A stretch of 7,054 nucleotides of DNA, taken from IMG/VR virus record IMGVR_UViG_2547132270_000003, positions 1-7,054 of that record; one strand, 5' to 3'. The notes beneath the pieces were generated by a model. It worked only from the letters and a program-made list of their open reading frames with translations, had not been told where the DNA came from and did no database searches. The position numbers were made by a program, and so were the translations under genes. Of the stretch, positions 1 through 7,054 are shown piece by piece. Each line of letters starts with the position of its first letter. Within the stretch, counting starts at the first letter, position 1. The DNA comes from a virus. Its lineage: Duplodnaviria > Heunggongvirae > Uroviricota > Caudoviricetes.

Positions 1-600
1 AAATGGGCTATCTGAAAATTGAGGCGTGTCTTTTAGCAGGCGTTCCAGAATCGCAGATTCATCATCTGCCGTAAGTTCGCCAAGCTTCGCCAGCCACACA
101 TCGTCGGGCCGATCACCGACAAACGCCTGAAAGAGCCGCAGTGAGATCCATTCATGTCGGTATGGTTGATAACTGCGGGCATTCTTTTGGGTCAGGCTTT
201 GCTGAAAGCTGCGTCCGGATTTTCCAAAATCATGAAATAACCCGGCGATGGCTGCCAGCAGCGCAATGCTTTCCGCACATTGCCAGCGGTTTTCTTCCTT
301 GTTCACCAGGCTGGTTTGCGTTGTGCGATTTGTGGGAACGCGCCCCTGAGCATTAAAACGACGAATATTACCCACAATCCACATCAACTCCATTTGTCCA
401 TTCTTCTTTAGCCAGTGACATGCCACTGCGGTATTTCGCCTGGCAGTTTTGCGCAGTAAACGGCGGAGTGTATTAACTCCTTCCAGAGTAATCACCGTTT
501 GCCATGCGGCATCACCTGTACGTTCAGCAAACTGATCAATAATACGGCAGCTTTCCACACGAGCATTTTTCGTACAGCGCGAGATAATTAGGACATTCAT
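1..600 (-). CDS. cas3: Type I-F Cas2-Cas3 fusion nuclease/helicase, N-terminal part only (gene continues beyond the window start)
   Basis: Not in the ORF track because it has no stop in the window. Hand translation of the minus strand from ATG at 600..598 is open to position 1: MNVLIISRCTKNARVESCRIIDQFAERTGDAAWQTVITLEGVNTLRRLLRKTARRNTAVACHWLKKNGQMELMWIVGNIRRFNAQGRVPTNRTTQTSLVNKEENRWQCAESIALLAAIAGLFHDFGKSGRSFQQSL... This is a Cas2-like N-terminus followed by the start of an HD domain (LFHDFGK motif), as in Cas2-3 of I-F systems. The start ATG overlaps the cas1 stop (ATGA, 597..600). Confidence 0.88.
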   Translation of the reverse strand, partial: MNVLIISRCTKNARVESCRIIDQFAERTGDAAWQTVITLEGVNTLRRLLRKTARRNTAVACHWLKKNGQMELMWIVGNIRRFNAQGRVPTNRTTQTSLVNKEENRWQCAESIALLAAIAGLFHDFGKSGRSFQQSLTQKNARSYQPYRHEWISLRLFQAFVGDRPDDVWLAKLGELTADDESAILERLLKDTPQFSDSPF

Positions 601-1580
601 TGGTCAACCTTAGCCAGTACCTGGGCCGTTTCCTGCAGAGAGGTGATCATGACATCCAGCGCATCCGCTTGTTGAAAGATATTGATACAGCGTTGACGAA
701 ACTCCTGAGCATCTTCTCCCGCCATTGCGGCAATAAATGCTTGTGGCATAACCAGGGCATCTTTAATCAGATCGGCAAGGTCAAAAACAAGCCCGCCGCG
801 ACGTGTTTTACCGTGCATTACTGCTAAACCGTGCGGGATACCTGTTACCCACGCTGCGACTGCTGCCAGTCCATAAGCCAGATAATTCCCTTGATCGAGA
901 AAGCGGTTGGCCATATCAATACCACCGCCCCGTTTTGCGCGAGTGAAATCGCCATAACCCACGGTTTGGCTCACCATTTTGTAGAGTGCTTTGGTCAATT
1001 TGGCCTCTACGAGCATAAGCTGCGTATGGTTTTCTGCCGCGTCGATTTCTTCGCGAGTACGATTTAGCAGGGTCTTCAGCGCATTAGCATCAGGCTGAAA
1101 GGCGTGTTCACGCTGCATTTTCGCGCTGGTCCAATGCTTATCGATATGTGTCAGGCGGATTAACTGAAAACGTTTCGCGGCGGCAAGTCGTTTATCTTCA
1201 ACAAACCAAAAAGAAACCCACTGCTGAAGATATTCAGTAGGACGATATTCGCTTTGCGGACTGAGCCAGGAGACATCAACATCAACTTCATTTGCCGAAT
1301 ACAGCGGCGTACCATCCGTACCACAAAAGCCCACCATCACCCCGGCATGAGCAAATTCACGCATCGCCGCCTGAGTCACGGATGTTCCCATCCCCAACAT
1401 CAATGCTGTGGTATTCGCAATGGGGATATTCCAGTAGTACGACTCTTTACCTTCGCTGGTGACATACTCCACCCGCCCACCATTCACCTGTACCCGGCAT
1501 TTTTCCAGATAATAAATATTGGCGCGTTTGGAGTGGAGAATGGTTTTGAGATCGGAAGGCGTAAGGTAATTCGAAGACAT
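597..1580 (-). CDS. cas1: Type I-F Cas1 integrase (327 aa)
   Basis: ORF track 597..1586 (-). The protein (MSSNYLTPSDLKTILHSKRANIYYLEKCRVQVNGGRVEYV...GIPHGLAVMHGKTRRGGLVFDLADLIKD...) matches the Cas1 family of I-F systems from memory. The track start at 1586 is a GTG; I prefer ATG at 1580..1578, which has an AGGA Shine-Dalgarno about 8 nt upstream. Confidence 0.93.
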   Translation of the reverse strand: MSSNYLTPSDLKTILHSKRANIYYLEKCRVQVNGGRVEYVTSEGKESYYWNIPIANTTALMLGMGTSVTQAAMREFAHAGVMVGFCGTDGTPLYSANEVDVDVSWLSPQSEYRPTEYLQQWVSFWFVEDKRLAAAKRFQLIRLTHIDKHWTSAKMQREHAFQPDANALKTLLNRTREEIDAAENHTQLMLVEAKLTKALYKMVSQTVGYGDFTRAKRGGGIDMANRFLDQGNYLAYGLAAVAAWVTGIPHGLAVMHGKTRRGGLVFDLADLIKDALVMPQAFIAAMAGEDAQEFRQRCINIFQQADALDVMITSLQETAQVLAKVDQ

Positions 1581-1752
1581 AAACACATCCTGTGATTATT
1601 TTATATTTGAAGGTATTGGGCTTAGTACAGCATTGATTTATGTGCTGAAAATTGATTTCCGTCGCAATTATTACGATTGTTATTGTGTACTGAAGCTAAT
1701 GGTTCGGAGTTGAGAACGCCATAACGCAGCTAAATTTCTGCCATCATCGTAT

Positions 1753-1840
1753 TTGTGAAACTGCCTGTACGGCAGTGAACAACATCTGGCCGTAGCGCTG
1801 TTTAAACCAGTCTTTCTAAGCTGCCTGTACGGCAGTGAAC
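1753..1840 (-). CRISPR. Minimal type I-F CRISPR array: 2 repeats of 28 bp flanking one 32 bp spacer
   Basis: Plus strand has TTTCTAAGCTGCCTGTACGGCAGTGAAC at 1813..1840, the reverse complement of the I-F repeat GTTCACTGCCGTACAGGCAGCTTAGAAA. A degenerate copy TTGTGAAACTGCCTGTACGGCAGTGAAC lies at 1753..1780 (4 mismatches, all in the 8 nt that form the 3' end in transcript orientation). The spacer is 1781..1812 (aacatctggccgtagcgctgtttaaaccagtc on plus). The array is read on the minus strand, co-directional with cas1. Confidence 0.85.
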
Positions 1841-1992
1841 TCAAATACTACACGCTTAGTCCGTTGTTAATAAAGCGAAACCATCAATACTCCCCGCTCA
1901 GACCCTTTTTTATCCCTACATCCCTGCGCATAGTTTTATCAATAAATTACGTCACCCCCGCAAAAAAAGGTCACATCTGCTCCGTCGAAGCG
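1841..1992 (-). promoter_or_regulatory. Putative CRISPR leader (AT-rich, upstream of the intact repeat in transcript orientation)
   Basis: The intact repeat is at the high-coordinate end and the degenerate repeat at the low-coordinate end. For minus-strand transcription this places the leader at 1841 onward, between the clpA terminator and the array. No promoter elements were mapped. Confidence 0.45.
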
Positions 1993-1993
1993 C

Positions 1994-2029
1994 AAAAAAA
2001 GTCCGTAACCCCATACAGGATTACGGACT
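1994..2029 (-). terminator. Rho-independent terminator downstream of clpA
   Basis: On the minus strand: stem AGTCCGTAA (revcomp of 2021..2029), a 12-nt loop, stem TTACGGACT (revcomp of 2000..2008), followed by a run of six or more T (A-tract 1994..1999 on plus). It lies about 150 nt downstream of the clpA stop. Confidence 0.75.
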
Positions 2030-2128
2030 CAGATTGTTAACAACGTGCGATTTGTTTATGTCGAATGCGGCACATTCACCTTACCCAATCTACAAAATCA
2101 TGCAAATTCAATAGATTGCACGAACCTT

Positions 2129-2157
2129 GTAGGCCTGATAAGCGCAGCGCATCAGGC
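2129..2157. repeat. REP-like (repetitive extragenic palindrome) element
   Basis: GTAGGCCTGATAAGCGCAGCGCATCAGGC has the GCCTGAT...ATCAGGC inverted arms and the typical enterobacterial REP consensus. It sits immediately 3' of the clpA stop and is followed by T8 on the plus strand. Confidence 0.6.
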
Positions 2158-2176
2158 ATTTTTTTTCGCCATCAGA

Positions 2177-4453
2177 TTAATGCGCGGCTTCCGGTTTATG
2201 CTTTTGCGCACTCTGGAAGCCGTAGGTCAGCTCATTTTTCTCTTTATCCAGCGCAACAGTCACCTGGCCGCCATCCACCAGCGAGCCAAACAGCAGTTCG
2301 TTGGCGAGCGGTTTTTTCAGGTTATCCTGAATCACACGTGCCATCGGACGCGCTCCCATTGCCCGGTCGTAACCTTTTTCGGCCAGCCAGTTACGAGCTT
2401 CCTGACTCACTTCCAGAGAAACGCCTTTTTGATCCAACTGTACCTGCAACTCGACGATGAATTTATCCACCACCTGATGGATCACATCAGTAGAAAGATG
2501 ATCGAACCAGATAATGTTGTCGAGGCGGTTACGGAACTCCGGCGTAAAGATCTTCTTGATCTCCTCCATCGCATCGGTGCTGTTATCCTGCTGGATAAGG
2601 CCAATCGATTTACGCTCGGTTTCTCGTACCCCAGCGTTGGTGGTCATCACCAATACCACGTTACGGAAGTCTGCTTTGCGTCCGTTGTTATCGGTCAGCG
2701 TACCGTTATCCATCACCTGCAACAGAATGTTGAACACGTCTGGATGCGCTTTCTCGATTTCGTCCAGCAGCAGCACCGCGTGCGGATGCTTAATTACCGC
2801 ATCGGTCAGCAAACCGCCCTGATCAAAACCAACGTATCCCGGAGGCGCGCCAATCAGACGGCTGACAGTGTGACGTTCCATATATTCGGACATATCAAAG
2901 CGTAATAGCTCAATGCCCAGAGCTTTGGAAAGCTGCACTGTAACCTCAGTTTTACCGACCCCGGTTGGACCAGCAAACAGGAACGAACCGACCGGTTTAT
3001 GTTCATGGCCTAAACCCGCACGCGACATCTTGATAGCTTCGGTAAGCGCCTCAATAGCTTTATCCTGACCGAAAACCAGCATTTTCAGACGGTCGCCGAG
3101 GTTTCTTAGCGTATCGCGGTCACTCTGAGAAACACTCTTCTCAGGGATACGCGCGATACGAGCTACCACGGACTCAATATCCGCTACATTGACGGTTTTC
3201 TTACGCTTGCTGATCGGCATCAGTCGCGCACGCGCGCCGGCCTCGTCAATGACATCAATCGCCTTATCCGGCAGATGGCGATCGTTAATGTACTTCACCG
3301 CCAGTTCTACCGCCGCACGCACCGCTTTCGCGGTATAACGCACGTCGTGGTGCGCTTCGTACTTCGGTTTCAGGCCATTGATAATTTGAACGGTTTCTTC
3401 GATCGACGGCTCAGTAATATCGATTTTCTGGAAGCGGCGCGCCAGAGCACGATCTTTCTCGAAAATGTTGCTGAATTCCTGATATGTCGTTGAACCGATA
3501 ACGCGAATTTTACCGCTTGAGAGCAACGGTTTGATCAGGTTAGCCGCATCCACCTGACCGCCAGATGCTGCCCCTGCACCGATGATGGTGTGGATCTCAT
3601 CGATAAAAAGAATGCTGTTGGTATCCTGTTCCAGTTGTTTGAGCAACGCCTTAAAACGTTTTTCAAAGTCACCACGATATTTGGTGCCTGCTAACAAAGA
3701 ACCGATATCCAGAGAGTAAATCGTACAGTCAGCCATCACTTCCGGCACATCGCCCTGGACGATGCGCCAGGCGAGACCTTCCGCAATCGCAGTTTTACCG
3801 ACGCCAGACTCACCAACCAGCAGCGGGTTGTTTTTACGGCGACGGCAAAGAACCTGAATGGCGCGTTCCAGTTCCTTCTCACGACCAATCAGTGGGTCAA
3901 TGCCGCCCACTCGTGCAAGCTGATTCAGGTTAGTCGTGAAATTCTCCATACGCTCCTCCCCACCAGCTTGTTCTTCACTGCCCGGCTGGTTTCCTGGTTC
4001 AGAAGACTGAGATGGCTCGTCTTTACGCGTGCCATGAGAAATAAAGTTCACTACATCAAGGCGGCTGACTTCATGTTTGCGCAACAGATAAGCCGCCTGT
4101 GATTCCTGTTCGCTGAAGATAGCGACCAGAACGTTCGCACCGGTAACCTCATTGCGACCGGAGGACTGAACATGGAATACCGCACGTTGTAGTACACGCT
4201 GAAAACTCAATGTCGGCTGCGTGTCGCGCTCTTCTTCGCTGGCAGGCAGAACGGGCGTGGTTTGTTCAATAAAGGCTTCCAGTTCCTGACGGAGCGCAAC
4301 CAGATCTACGGAACACGCCTCCAGCGCCTCCCGGGCAGATGGGTTACTGAGCAACGCCAGTAACAAGTGCTCGACGGTCATAAACTCATGACGGTGCTCG
4401 CGCGCTCTGGCGAAAGCCATGTTTAAACTGAGTTCCAGTTCTTGATTGAGCAT
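2177..4453 (-). CDS. clpA: ATP-dependent Clp protease ATP-binding subunit ClpA (758 aa)
   Basis: ORF track 2177..4468 (-). The protein is essentially the E. coli ClpA sequence as I recall it ([35 protein letters not shown]..., two AAA+ modules with GESGVGKT and GPTGVGKT Walker A motifs). The true start is the second ATG at 4453 (MLNQ...), preceded by GGAGG; the track's upstream ATG at 4468 lies inside that ribosome-binding site. Confidence 0.97.
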
Positions 4454-4483
4454 AGGCACCTCCCCCAATTTTTATGCCTGCAT

Positions 4484-4804
4484 TCAGGCTTTTTCCAGCG
4501 TACACAGCAATGGATGCTCATTCTCCCTCGCATACTTGTTCACCATCGCTACTTTGGTTTCTGCAACCTCAGCGGTAAAGACGCCGCAAATGGCCTTCCC
4601 CTGGTAGTGAACAGCGAGCATCAATTGCGTTGCACGTTCTACATCATAAGAAAAGAATTTTTGTAACACGTCAATAACAAACTCCATCGGAGTGTAATCA
4701 TCATTGACTAATATCACTTTATACATAGATGGCGGTTTTAGCGCGTCGCGCACTCTTTCTTCCGCCAGTTGCTCAAAGTCCAGCCAGTCGTTCGTTTTAC
4801 CCAT
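4484..4804 (-). CDS. clpS: ClpS, ClpAP adaptor for N-degron substrates (106 aa)
   Basis: ORF track 4484..4804 (-): [51 protein letters not shown]..., which matches E. coli ClpS from memory. It lies 30 nt upstream of clpA, the canonical clpS-clpA arrangement. Confidence 0.95.
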
Positions 4805-4977
4805 TGTCAGTTATCATCTTCGGTTACGGTTATCGGCAGAACGCTCTGCCGCTGACAAGAGCTTATTTGCCTGACCAATCTACTTCACATGATAGATAAC
4901 TATCATTTATATCATTTAGTTAATTAGTCTTTATTTTTCATTATGTTGCAAATAACAAGCCCGTCAAAAACAGTGAT

Positions 4978-5034
4978 ATTAACTACACCATTAACTACAC
5001 CGCTTCACGAACAATATCGAACAACCGCGAACAA
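4978..5034. repeat. Perfect tandem 12-bp repeat (ATTAACTACACC x2) followed by three CGAACAA heptamers at exact 10-bp phasing
   Basis: Read directly: ATTAACTACACC at 4978..4989 and 4990..5001; CGAACAA at 5008..5014, 5018..5024 and 5028..5034. It lies about 175 to 230 bp upstream of the clpS start in an AT-rich region. Confidence 0.5.
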
Positions 5035-5299
5035 AGATCAACACGCTTTAATCATTATCATTTTCCGGCTATCCGTCATGAAGCTGGTGGATGATCTGCG
5101 TGGTGATTTCCACCATTCAGAGCAGGGCGGTCATCATGACCATGCCATAACAAAAACCCCATATTCGTGGTTTTTCTGTGTCGGGGCTATTCTGCTGTTG
5201 CCGTGCTGGTGGATATTCTCCGGTATGCGGCTCCCCATATCGGCATCAGGCCCACCAGCGTGAAGCGTTTTTCATTTTTCGCGGGTATAAAAAATCGAT

Positions 5300-5348
5300 G
5301 GGGCGGGCAGTCCTGAAGAGGTCAGGATACAGAGATTTGACCCGCCCC
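5300..5348 (-). other. GC-rich hairpin (GGGGCGGG ... CCCGCCCC) with an inner TCCTGA/TCAGGA hairpin; terminator-like for leftward transcripts
   Basis: Inverted repeat GGGGCGGG (5300..5307) and CCCGCCCC (5341..5348). On the minus strand a T6 tract follows, but after a 5-nt spacer, so it is not a textbook terminator. A 14-bp perfect palindrome GGCGGAATTCCGCC lies nearby at 5381..5394. Confidence 0.35.
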
Positions 5349-5524
5349 CTCCCTGTGCATGAGCACAATAAGTAACCAAAGGCGGAATTCCGCCCTCGGT
5401 GCTCACATATAAGAAACGATATTTCTTCCACCGATCCCCTGTATTTTGGTATCGCGGGTAAGCCCCAAAATCTGGGTGTTACTCTTACTACCCAAACTAC
5501 GGGTAGTTTCCGTAGTTTCTGGTC

Positions 5525-5544
5525 GAGTTGCAGATCTGCAACTC
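5525..5544. promoter_or_regulatory. 20-bp perfect palindrome GAGTTGCAGATCTGCAACTC (candidate protein-binding site)
   Basis: Read directly; the sequence is its own reverse complement over 20 bp, in a region with no convincing gene. Confidence 0.4.
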
Positions 5545-5800
5545 ACCCACCAGCTAACCCATTTTTGGGCCGTCGGGAATATCAACCAGTTACTGCCAGT
5601 GATCTGGATGTTCTGCAGTCTGGCTGGTGGCTGGACGCTGATTTTTTGCGTACCTGTATCGGTTTCGTATCCGGTGGATGTTCTGCGTACTTTTCAGAGG
5701 CGGATTTCCGCCCACGCCATTCTGGACCAGTTGAAGGGGCCGAATACATCACCGGATTTAGGGGATGTTCCCGGCCTCCTCAATTTGAGGATTGTGGAAG

Positions 5801-5869
5801 AATCAATGGGTTAGTCTTACTGTCCCTCATTTCCTGCATTGCAGGTTTTCGAAATAATCAATGGGTTAG
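5801..5869. repeat. Direct repeats AATCAATGGGTTAG (5801..5814 and 5856..5869), 55 bp apart
   Basis: Read directly. A third, inverted copy of the ATGGGTTAG core (plus-strand CTAACCCAT) lies near 5553..5561. The second direct copy overlaps the TGA (5858..5860) that ends the open frame downstream of the 94-aa ORF. Confidence 0.5.
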
Positions 5870-6031
5870 GCCATCGTGCAATTTTGCACTTTGCCAGCCA
5901 GCGCAATGTTGCGTTATCGGGAATATCAGCACGTTACCGGCTTTCGTCATGTTAAACACTGGCCAGGCATCGCCATTCTTATCAATAAAATCACCAGGCT
6001 CAAAATTGAGCTTTGCTTTAATCTCAGCAAG

Positions 6032-6316
6032 TTACCGCCGTAACCGTTCCGGCTTCTTCCACTGGTAAGTTTTTTTCTCGCTCTCCTGATACATCGCCAC
6101 ACGTCGACGGTATGCCAGCAACTCTAATACCCTGGTTCGTATGTCGCGCATATCCACGCCGTTAAGATCGATACCGTCACAGCGCATCACCTCAGCCACC
6201 ACACGCGCGTAATTTTCAGCGGTGACGGTATCAGGCTGCATGGCCTCCTGTGTGCCAGCCTGCTGGCTGATTCCGGTAACGCGGCGGATTAATCCCAGTA
6301 GTTCGGCTTCTGTCAT
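6032..6316 (-). CDS. Hypothetical small protein (94 aa) immediately downstream of the terS-like gene, possibly a truncated or interrupted gene
   Basis: ORF track 6032..6316 (-), starting at an ATG 11 nt after the terS-like stop with no clear Shine-Dalgarno, so translational coupling is plausible. It ends at TAA 6032..6034, and the same frame stays open for 57 more codons to TGA at 5858..5860. It does not resemble the lambda large terminase gpA N-terminus as I recall it. Confidence 0.5.
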   Translation of the reverse strand: MTEAELLGLIRRVTGISQQAGTQEAMQPDTVTAENYARVVAEVMRCDGIDLNGVDMRDIRTRVLELLAYRRRVAMYQESEKKTYQWKKPERLRR

Positions 6317-6327
6317 AGTGCGCTACG

Positions 6328-6870
6328 TTACTTGTCTTTATCCGGCTGAAACTTATCAGGCACATTTCCGGTAGTTTCCATCAGATAATCGGACAGTATT
6401 CGCGGGATGTTTTCATCAAGTTTTGTGCATGCGTTACAGGCTCTGACAACTTCCTTTTTAAGTCCATCCAGCATAGCGGGGGTAATCTGTGGGAAGCGCC
6501 TTTGCATGGTAAGCGGCAAACTGTCCATGATTGAAGAAATCTGACTCGCCAGTTTTGAAAGCACATATATACAAAATTCCGTACTAATAACGTCGCCGCG
6601 TTCGCGCTCGTTTTTAAGCTCCTGCGCCTCCGCCTGCGCTGTCAGCAATCTGATCCTGACTCGCAAAAGTTCATCATTATCAATCTCGCCTTTGTCGTCT
6701 GTAATCTGGTTAATTGCATTGCTAACCCGATTGTCTATTACGCTGGCAACATCATAAAACGCCTCGCGGCCTTTACGTTCAACGGGAGTCACTCCCCACT
6801 TGTCGAACGCTGTCGCACTTACACGGCAGCTTTGCGCCATGTTTTTTTTGTTCATCAGGTACGATTTCAT
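6328..6870 (-). CDS. terS: Phage lambda Nu1-like terminase small subunit (TerS)
   Basis: ORF track 6328..6882 (-). The C-terminal two thirds (LLTAQAEAQELKNERERGDVISTEFCIYVLSKLASQISSIMDSLPLTMQRRFP...LDENIPRILSDYLME) aligns with lambda Nu1 as I recall it (RLTRAQADAQELKNARDSAEVVETAFCTFVLSRIAGEIASILDGLPLSVQRRFP...LDELIPGLLSEYIE). The N-terminal region is divergent. The track start at 6882 is a GTG; I prefer ATG at 6870, which has GGGGA 5 nt upstream, and ATG at 6855 is an alternative. Confidence 0.85.
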   Translation of the reverse strand: MKSYLMNKKNMAQSCRVSATAFDKWGVTPVERKGREAFYDVASVIDNRVSNAINQITDDKGEIDNDELLRVRIRLLTAQAEAQELKNERERGDVISTEFCIYVLSKLASQISSIMDSLPLTMQRRFPQITPAMLDGLKKEVVRACNACTKLDENIPRILSDYLMETTGNVPDKFQPDKDK

Positions 6871-7054
6871 CAATATCCCCACTTAAGTAATGTTTCAGGT
6901 TGGTGTATTGGTTTTATCTTTCCCTTTTTATTCATAGAGATAGAGCGAACAACAAAACCACCACCAATCCCCTAAAAATACTCATAAATAGCGAAAACCC
7001 GCAAGGTCGCCGCCCCGTAGCCTACCGGATCGCCGGAAAGGACCCGCCAGCCAG
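6871..7054 (-). other. Lambda-type cos site: cosN cohesive-end sequence at 7004..7015 with a divergent cosB between cosN and terS
   Basis: Minus strand reads CTACG GGGCGGCGACCT TGCGGGTTTTCGCTATTTATGAGTATTTTTAGGGG. From memory the lambda left end is GGGCGGCGACCTCGCGGGTTTTCGCTATTTATGAAAATTTTCCGG, so the 12-nt cohesive end and the adjoining ~22 nt are nearly identical. Similarity is lost after about 35 nt, through the ~135 bp up to the terS start. Confidence 0.75.

Follow-up and report, generated by a model that had tools for sequence, protein, structure and literature searches.

A non-coding array of dyads and IHF-consensus boxes in the tail of an EcCICFT073-type phage satellite: possible mimicry of the Roi/IHF site in phage roi genes

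Introduction

The Roi protein of phage HK022 was reported by Clerget and Boccard (1996) to bind a site within its gene, roi, that is closely linked to a site for integration host factor (IHF), and IHF is said to stabilize this binding. Here we analyze a repeat-rich stretch in the tail of an integrated phage satellite, a phage-inducible chromosomal island (PICI) of the EcCICFT073 type, that resembles this module. The stretch lies in a window of 7,054 nt, by which we mean the whole DNA analyzed (IMG/VR record IMGVR_UViG_2547132270_000003, positions 1 to 7,054), and contains five composite units, each consisting of a dyad, a T-rich spacer and an IHF-consensus box.

The array and the roi module of HK022 and the Shiga toxin (Stx) phages have in common a dyad, a spacer of ~10 bp, a perfect IHF consensus and clear homology at the DNA level (46 of 52 positions for unit 2). 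The dyad CCTGCATTGCAG(G) occurs both in HK022 roi and in unit 3, and the dyads vary between alleles yet remain symmetric. However, the phage site is single and located within a coding sequence, whereas the satellite array is non-coding, comprises one to five copies, places different dyads side by side and belongs to an element that encodes no Roi, and protein binding to it is something we infer.

Other described systems are similar in part. The cosB site of phage lambda (R3-I1-R2-R1) and the cos1/cos2 sites of EcCICFT073 are likewise clusters of protein sites, including an IHF site, next to packaging genes, but cosB is found no more than ~200 bp away from cosN and has R sites that lack dyad symmetry, whereas the lambda-type cos of the island in the window is located elsewhere and the array is independent of the SfI-type cos (Table 1). 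The bacterial interspersed mosaic elements (BIMEs) of Escherichia coli of the RIP/RIB type also consist of a palindrome and an IHF site, repeated at the 3' end of a transcription unit; unlike these, the array has no repetitive extragenic palindromic (REP) consensus, and its units are confined to satellite tails and roi rather than dispersed over the chromosome. Iteron origins (pSC101, R6K gamma, and the lambda ori in gene O) likewise combine repeated dyad or iteron sites with IHF sites, and, as with lambda O, the ancestral site of the satellite units is located within the very gene whose product reportedly binds it, but the array in the window shows no A+T-rich region, no regular phasing and no adjacent initiator gene, and its dyads are heterogeneous.

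The closest counterpart is the tail of EcCICFT073 itself, in which the same last gene (93 aa) is followed by three co-oriented units, all with perfect IHF-consensus boxes. The island in the window belongs to the EcCICFT073 group, with capsid and decoration genes followed by a Nu1-like terS in place of rpp, and differs from the prototype in having five units, extra filler, a unique insertion of 58-98 nt and an additional SfI-type cos. The PICI literature that we searched, which describes cos1/cos2, cosB and Rpp, makes no mention of a tail array or of IHF sites in it. Each component is already known on its own, the consensus for IHF as well as the Roi/IHF site that roi contains; their multiplied, multi-allelic, non-coding satellite version appears to be undescribed.

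Results

A sequence-only reading of the window had reported a cluster of short direct and inverted repeats at 5540-5940. All the repeats that it quoted are real: TGGATGTTCTGC occurs exactly at 5605-5616 and 5675-5686, TCGGGAATATCA-N4-GTTAC at 5573-5593 and 5917-5937 (with a further copy at 6020-6037), and AATCAATGGGTTAG at 5801-5814 and 5856-5869, and the inverted core that it placed near 5553-5561 is found as an inverted 10-mer, CTAACCCATT, at 5554-5563. The AATATCA-N4-GTTAC pair widens to 44 nt (5550-5593 and 5894-5937, 73% identity) and the AATCAATGGGTTAG pair widens to a 38-nt tandem pair (5777-5814 and 5832-5869, 55 nt apart). Compared with 1000 dinucleotide-preserving shuffles of 5540-5940, this segment contains a large excess of repeated 10-mers (11 against a mean of 0.10), of repeated 12-mers (5 against 0.004) and of perfect palindromes with a stem of at least 5 and a loop of at most 4 (9 against 1.8, P about 0.001).

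The repeats had been taken for several independent families within 400 bp. Nearly all of them, the TGGATGTTCTGC pair being the exception, turn out to be parts of one composite unit, and the array continues to position 6037. The unit consists of a dyad of 12-15 bp, a T-rich spacer of 7-10 bp and an IHF-consensus box, and five such units, all in one orientation, occupy 5558-6037 (Table 1). Both the AATCAATGGGTTAG and the AATATCA-N4-GTTAC repeats include the IHF consensus WATCAANNNNTTR, which the earlier reading had overlooked. Perfect matches to this consensus start at 5580, 5801 and 5856, all on the + strand and within 290 bp, and the entire window contains four compared to an expected 0.35. 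A perfect or near-perfect dyad is located ~7-10 bp upstream of every box, and the distances from box to box are 221, 55, 68 and 98 bp.

The units are related to a segment of a phage gene. In a BLAST search against phage genomes, 5771-5819 matched roi of Stx phages ('antirepressor', Rha-N and KilAC) over 49 nt with 92-94% identity, the matched segment corresponding to about codons 41-57; compared over 52 nt, units 2 and 3 are homologous to roi codons ~42-58. Whereas the 99.9th percentile for the identity of random 52-mers to roi is 25/52, the value for unit 2, given above, was reached with a Stx-type allele, unit U2 of the satellite L011 is identical to another allele (L130-type) at 45/52 positions, and unit 3 is identical to roi alleles at 31-33/52, with dyad and spacer common to a third allele (L150-type); that is, different satellite units match different roi alleles. 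In HK022, the same codons of roi contain CCTGCATTGCAG, a spacer and then AATCAATGATTTA, which is the dyad of unit 3 followed by a perfect IHF consensus, the only one in 10.7 kb of HK022.

Among 80 further roi loci, we found allele classes with different dyads (CCTCAAATTGAGG, CCTCAATTTGAGG and CCCCCAATGGTGG) in which the symmetry is largely kept. A scan anchored on spacer and box, with no selection for palindromes, yielded 19 variants, almost all of them with a perfect or near-perfect dyad upstream; the roi-like alleles recovered in this manner include the dyads CCTGCATTGCAGG, GCGCATTTTTGCG and CCGCCAATGGCTG. Within roi (L061 4783-4824, which is HK022; L014 1205-1249; L062-L141), the 13-bp dyad remains symmetric while the encoded peptide changes completely from allele to allele (PQIE, PPMV, PALQ). 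Such retention of symmetry despite a changed peptide implies that selection within roi acts on the DNA or RNA as such. From these sequence comparisons, the satellite units would be evolutionary DNA copies of a cis-site inside the roi gene of lambdoid phages, which suggests an undescribed link between the islands and lambda-like phages.

The two arms of the dyad covary. In an ungapped alignment of 52 columns (A4), built from units pre-selected for a palindrome, 97.8% of the cells pair and five of the six pairs change on both sides, a result seen in 0 of 500 shuffles. In a second ungapped alignment (A5), collected by spacer and box and hence unselected, 86.9% pair compared to 70% in shuffles (again 0/500). 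Dyads in the satellites come closer to perfect symmetry than those in the coding copies, as in CCCCCAATGGGGG versus CCCCCAATGGTGG of a roi allele; although no coding constraint acts on them, the satellite copies retain the dyad and the IHF consensus and even perfect both.

About 50 related satellite loci, EcCICFT073 among them, have one to five units of this kind at the equivalent position. Using two conserved DNA words and the protein encoded by the last satellite gene (94 aa in the window), we recovered 51 tails adjoining this gene, the window counted, from E. coli genomes and IMG/VR contigs; a scan of genome contigs with the protein gave a single locus, so that the diversity comes from IMG/VR and the E. 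coli genomes. DNA-motif and protein-similarity searches together gave 52 loci, the window included, and in 51 of these the gene adjoins the array. Motif-detected units sit just downstream of the gene in all tails, on a strand that is constant relative to the gene, while their number (from none up to five) and arrangement vary across the 51 tails. Position and orientation are fixed in at least 38 distinct tails from varied satellite types and integration sites, capsid-forming PICIs (cf-PICIs) and other satellite types sharing this tail, and in 14 related loci scanned in full, recognizable units were found in the tail only. EcCICFT073, in addition to its three units, whose array lies at about 1388655-1388860 of NC_004431.1, carries both published lambda-type cosN sequences.

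The variants of the tail differ by insertions and deletions that are bounded by units. Short tails have one unit, which abuts the stop codon, and in others an insertion of 140-300 bp separates two units. In helper-embedded PICIs such as L011, which resides in the portal gene of a lambdoid prophage, three IHF boxes are exactly 54 bp apart; satellites of this type keep the array and are without the SfI-type cos. The 44-nt direct repeat of the window represents two copies of the junction unit, and a deletion between these would yield the short form found in L004, L009 and L010. The unit-bounded pattern implies that the units are also recombination substrates. To this extent, the earlier suggestion of a recombination site stands, although clustered regulator-binding sites, another of the options that had been offered, provide the only good fit.

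Table 1. Features of the satellite tail and the adjoining genes (positions in the window)
Feature	Positions	Strand	Description
SfI/ST64B-type cos	5267-5360		HNH-dependent, HK97-like; cut 5294/5295
Terminator-like hairpin	5375-5400	minus	within the best-conserved part of the tail
Alternative hairpins	5487-5516		two, overlapping: ACTACCC/GGGTAGT and AAACTACGG/CCGTAGTTT
Palindrome	5524-5543		perfect, 20 bp: GAGTTGCAGATCTGCAACTC
Unit 1 (J type)	5558-5593	+	dyad CCCAttttTGGG (CCCA-tttt-TGGG, 5558-5569), spacer, perfect IHF-consensus box TATCAACCAGTTA (5580-5592)
Filler between units 1 and 2	5598-5776		poorly conserved; in only 3/38 related tails
Unit 2 (U1)	5777-5814	+	dyad TCCTCAAtTTGAGGA (5777-5791), spacer, perfect IHF-consensus box AATCAATGGGTTA (5801-5813)
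Unit 3 (U3)	5833-5869	+	dyad CCTGCAtTGCAGG (5833-5845), spacer TTTTCGAAAT, perfect box AATCAATGGGTTA (5856-5868)
Extra dyad	5876-5889		GTGCAAttTTGCAC, no IHF box; kept in relatives as GTGCAAATTTGCAC
Unit 4 (J type)	5901-5937	+	dyad GCGCAAtgTTGCGT, spacer TATCGGGA, box TATCAGCACGTTA (5924-5936), 1 mismatch to IHF consensus
Window-specific insertion	5940-5997		separates units 4 and 5; 5940-5979 in 0/38 related tails, 5980-5999 nearly absent
Unit 5 (J type)	5998-6037	+	dyad GCTCAAaaTTGAGC (5998-6011), spacer CTTTGCTTTA, box TCTCAGCAAGTTA (6022-6034), 2 mismatches
Last satellite gene	6032-6316	minus	94 aa; PHROG 1561, satellite-specific
Small terminase gene	6328-6882	minus	184 aa, Nu1-like
cosQ-cosN region	6940-7046	minus	near-identical to lambda ~-30 to +36
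Lambda-type cosN	7004-7015	minus	exact GGGCGGCGACCT, directly upstream of the Nu1-like terS

In relatives with short tails, unit 1 directly adjoins the stop codon of the last satellite gene. Unit 4 duplicates the junction found next to this stop codon in most relatives, and the box of unit 5 contains the stop codon of the 94-aa gene (TAA, minus strand, 6032-6034); the window-specific insertion leads into this extra J-type unit. The TGGATGTTCTGC pair is located in the filler, where the stretch with its second copy is absent at this position from the three aligned relatives, and we regard the pair as a local duplication. The filler also contains a palindrome, GGCGGAttTCCGCC (5699-5712), of which another copy stands at 5381-5394. 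Conservation within the tail is highest at 5360-5557, a part present in 25-30 of the 38 distinct tails with an identity of 0.8-0.99; it contains the hairpins and the 20-bp palindrome listed in Table 1 and has no match in phage genomes.

The earlier observation that the stretch contains no convincing gene was confirmed: the overlapping open reading frames (ORFs) have no Pfam or PHROG match and are artefacts, as had been supposed, and the array indeed adjoins the packaging module. A tblastn comparison of the window stretch with Roi, the 94-aa family, the HNH protein of SfI and TerS proteins gave a sole match, 36 aa of Roi over unit 2, and in related E. coli islands the RefSeq annotation of the homologous stretch includes neither gene nor pseudogene. 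There is no roi ORF in the stretch, the similarity being limited to 16-17 codons with no Pfam match. A decayed protein-coding gene, envisaged in the sequence-only reading as an alternative, does not account for the array, given that the homology to a gene (roi) spans only a cis-site of ~50 nt and that the units are conserved across related elements. Remnants of a duplicated 94-aa gene, suggested by the threefold occurrence of the junction motif, were sought with eight family members in tblastn searches and nothing was found in 5400-6031; nor was there tblastn similarity to a decayed HNH or terS gene beside the SfI-type cos.

Structured RNAs of known families were not detected either. No transfer RNA (tRNA), transfer-messenger RNA (tmRNA) or other Rfam family reached the gathering score in 4900-6100, where the matches were at the level of chance (E up to 1), and known RNA families were accordingly set aside. 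A scan with a terminator consensus returned three terminator-like sites compared to 2.0 expected, none of which coincides with a unit dyad; the unit spacers are T-rich on the + strand only. The REP consensus is absent from the stretch, and a REP/BIME element was rejected for this reason. As for proteins that might recognize the dyads, the AlpA-like helix-turn-helix (HTH) protein of the satellite shows no similarity to Roi. The 94-aa protein, considered as a candidate for the dyad-binding factor, has an AlphaFold model of three helices (predicted local distance difference test score, pLDDT, 76), no significant fold or sequence match in the PDB and no Pfam or NCBIfam family.

The island carries two different kinds of cos ~1.7 kb apart. 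The lambda-type cosN belongs to a cosQ-cosN region that is diverged where lambda has cosB. In the adjacent small terminase, residues 68-151 match positions 78-161 of the profile of the lambda Nu1 family, and the protein is chimeric, its N-terminal DNA-binding part being unrelated to Nu1. In EcCICFT073 (L259, NC_004431.1 1385000-1389300), RppA occupies the slot equivalent to that of the Nu1-like terS, and two lambda-type cosN are found in opposite orientations, at 2559 and 3298-3309 of this segment, one upstream of the rppA-like gene and the other, inverted, between the rppA-like and 93-aa genes. The second cos of the window is identified by the ends of the linear SfI phage genome, which align on either side of the cut (..aaaaaatcgat|ggggcgggcagtcc..), and this module is 93% identical in capsid-forming PICIs that encode HNH, a P27-type TerS and TerL. 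The proposal that the repeats form a packaging site finds no support, with cosN at 7004-7015, the SfI-type cos at ~5295 and the array persisting in satellites without the latter; an accessory site of cos is unlikely for the same reasons.

The left part of the window, including clpA and clpS, is chromosomal DNA. The homology to K-12 stops at ~4910, inside the 3' end of yljB, and to the right of this point lies the end of the integrated satellite, inserted beside clpS; in 25 complete E. coli genomes, the clpS/cspD site is occupied by related islands. These islands begin with genes for an integrase, an AlpA-like regulator, an Icd-like protein, a DUF4222 protein, a primase-family protein and a single-stranded DNA-binding protein (SSB), and end with those for a major capsid protein, a head decoration protein, an HTH protein, a 'terminase small subunit' and a hypothetical protein of ~94 aa; the genes of EcCICFT073, prototype of the Gram-negative PICIs, are laid out in this way. 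The repeat stretch falls in the ~1.1-kb non-coding 3' tail between the last satellite gene and the chromosome junction, the array proper being bounded by the 94-aa gene and the SfI-type cos.

The junction at ~4910 lies in an A+T-rich stretch (GC 0.26-0.30, 4905-5035). A 58-nt segment, 4978-5035, contains a doubled motif, TAACTACACCATTAACTACACC, and is found again in EcCICFT073 and, in related islands, at the end next to the integrase (L003 20078-20134); the motif probably corresponds to the arm-type motif that has been described for integrases of this clade. Within the att-proximal tail, a 106-aa ORF (4943-5263, +) has no Pfam or PHROG match, lies opposite a sigma-70-like promoter match (4967-4940), and is probably not a gene. 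On the chromosomal side, we observed a type I-F cas1 near clpA (597-1586, minus strand; TIGR03637, 548 bits), a single CRISPR-DR4 repeat (1813-1840) and, just beyond the 3' end of clpA, an Rfam match to the small RNA ES036 (CssrF) at 2094-2136.

Discussion

Taken together, the anatomy of the units, their enrichment and conservation, the homology to roi and the covariation of the dyads suggest a model, to which we assign a probability of roughly 0.4, whereby the stretch is a non-coding array of five co-oriented sites for IHF and a dyad-binding protein, in mimicry of the Roi/IHF site of roi. The description given above of the HK022 site agrees with the module of dyad and box at roi codons 42-58. 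Under this model, IHF would bend the DNA at each box, and a dimeric DNA-binding protein of the Roi/Rha type, supplied by a lambdoid phage, would occupy the adjacent dyad. Because a single array combines unlike dyads that correspond to different alleles of roi, it could be regarded as a multi-specific operator mimic, which would trap the Roi proteins of phages or act as their decoy, and might also form a roadblock to transcription or replication at the end of the late operon. Unequal recombination between units would create the variants of copy number and spacing that the sequence-only reading perceived as separate families.

Several observations weigh against this model. The proposed occupancy by IHF and Roi is based on consensus, on homology and on what was reported for HK022. 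Identity of the J-type units (1, 4 and 5) to roi alleles amounts to no more than 22-25/52, which borders on chance, and these units have no match in phage genomes. What links them to roi is the architecture that they have in common, intermediates (L037_d) and a single roi-like allele whose dyad is GCGCA...TGCG. Alignment A4 carries the pre-selection mentioned above, and the box in roi encodes a conserved I-N-x-L-G peptide, such that conservation at this position may in part reflect protein constraint. Furthermore, EcCICFT073 is transferred by phage lambda. Lambda is not known to carry roi. In the helper prophage of the LH09-a satellite, a scan revealed no roi-type unit, and the prophage region beside EcCICFT073 has no annotated roi, as judged from annotation alone.

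The transfer of EcCICFT073 by a phage without roi, together with the adjacent prophages that have no roi-type unit, implies that Roi is not needed for satellite transfer, which favors a role as a decoy or in interference over that of an induction sensor. The probable use of the array is accordingly to interfere with, or be tuned to, phages that bear roi, and not to induce the satellite. The idea that the cognate helper carries the matching roi allele is unsupported in both LH09-a (by the scan) and CFT073 (by annotation only). A more elaborate version, in which multi-allelic Roi/IHF operator mimics, which are at the same time antisense roi copies on the transcribed strand, trap or mis-regulate the Roi proteins or roi mRNAs of several phages, is possible, and we put it forward tentatively, as a rather doubtful extension.

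An explanation at the level of RNA appears improbable but accommodates part of the data. The array could belong to the long 3' untranslated region (UTR) of the minus-strand late operon, with the units acting as stabilizing or processing hairpins or as roi antisense RNA silencing several alleles. In all loci the units run antisense to the operon of the satellite, the minus-strand terminator-like hairpin beyond the array would place the array within the transcript, covariation of the dyad arms is what a hairpin predicts, and unit 2 would be complementary to Stx-type roi mRNA at 46 of 52 positions. However, the hairpins are weak, with stems of at most 5-7 bp and centers of 1-4 nt, no U-tract follows them on the operon strand, and the folding z-scores (-2.2 and -2.5), which at face value favor RNA structure, are equal on both strands and therefore do not discriminate. 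In addition, hairpins leave the most conserved part of the unit, the IHF-consensus box, unexplained, the J-type units have no complementarity to roi, unit 3 departs from the nearest roi allele exactly in the interior of the box, and no Rfam family matches.

We consider it similarly unlikely that the array is an architectural accessory, in which phased IHF bends would aid the terminase at a nearby cos or the integrase at attP, and the dyads would be incidental or bind a satellite protein. IHF is a known cofactor both at lambda cosB (site I1) and at attP, the array is situated between the packaging genes and the SfI-type cos, and the 54-bp spacing in helper-embedded PICIs is indeed a regular phasing. 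These points have to be set against the distances involved: the SfI-type cut is 260-740 bp away from the units, the lambda-type cosN at least about 970 bp and the att junction 650-1100 bp, whereas the published PICI cos, cosB included, maps immediately beside cosN, upstream of rpp/terS. Moreover, the copy number ranges from 1 to 5, and satellites of the L011 type keep the array even without the SfI-type cos.

The third alternative, to which we also give little credence, is that the units are non-functional debris, that is, short roi fragments that recombination brought in and unequal crossing-over multiplied, and that travel as passengers of the neighboring gene. The clear DNA homology to a fragment of a gene, the mosaic structure of the tail with its unit-bounded indels, window-specific insertions and poorly conserved filler, and the resemblance of the TGGATGTTCTGC pair to a local duplication are all compatible with such an origin. 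Under this scenario, however, it would be difficult to account for the presence of the same ~50-nt segment of roi only, in several allelic versions and with no homology to flanking roi sequence, for the dyad and IHF consensus being kept and perfected in the absence of coding constraint, and for the fixed place and orientation across the tails. Finally, although repeats and IHF sites occur in plasmid origins, phage P4 replication uses two separated cis regions and related islands encode a primase-family protein, an iteron-type origin, or a second cis-replication region for a P4-alpha-like primase, as the sequence-only reading had also contemplated, is very improbable because the array has no A+T-rich unwinding element (GC 0.43-0.55 across 5540-6040) and no set of three or more near-identical, regular iterons but irregularly spaced composite units with differing dyads, because the primase gene is more than 4 kb away in related islands, because cf-PICIs and other satellite types share the tail, because a cloned pri-ori segment suffices for EcCICFT073 replication according to published work, and because the units are homologous to a segment of roi and to no known iteron.

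Mimicry of the Roi/IHF site, if real, would bear on the biology of satellites in several ways. Work on the conflict between satellites and their helpers has so far been centered on proteins, namely Rpp, TerS mimics, capsid-size redirectors and defence systems. Operator or RNA mimicry would add a new layer, a cis-acting, non-protein form of interference or cross-talk between satellite and phage that is present in EcCICFT073, and because this prototype island carries three units, the idea is directly testable there. At the level of the satellite group, the unit accounts for the structural variation among these tails, and the dyad and IHF box over the stop codon of the last gene are a good sequence marker of the 3' boundary. 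For the phages, mimicry would provide the first biological context for Roi, a widespread and almost unstudied Rha/KilAC protein of lambdoid and Stx phages.

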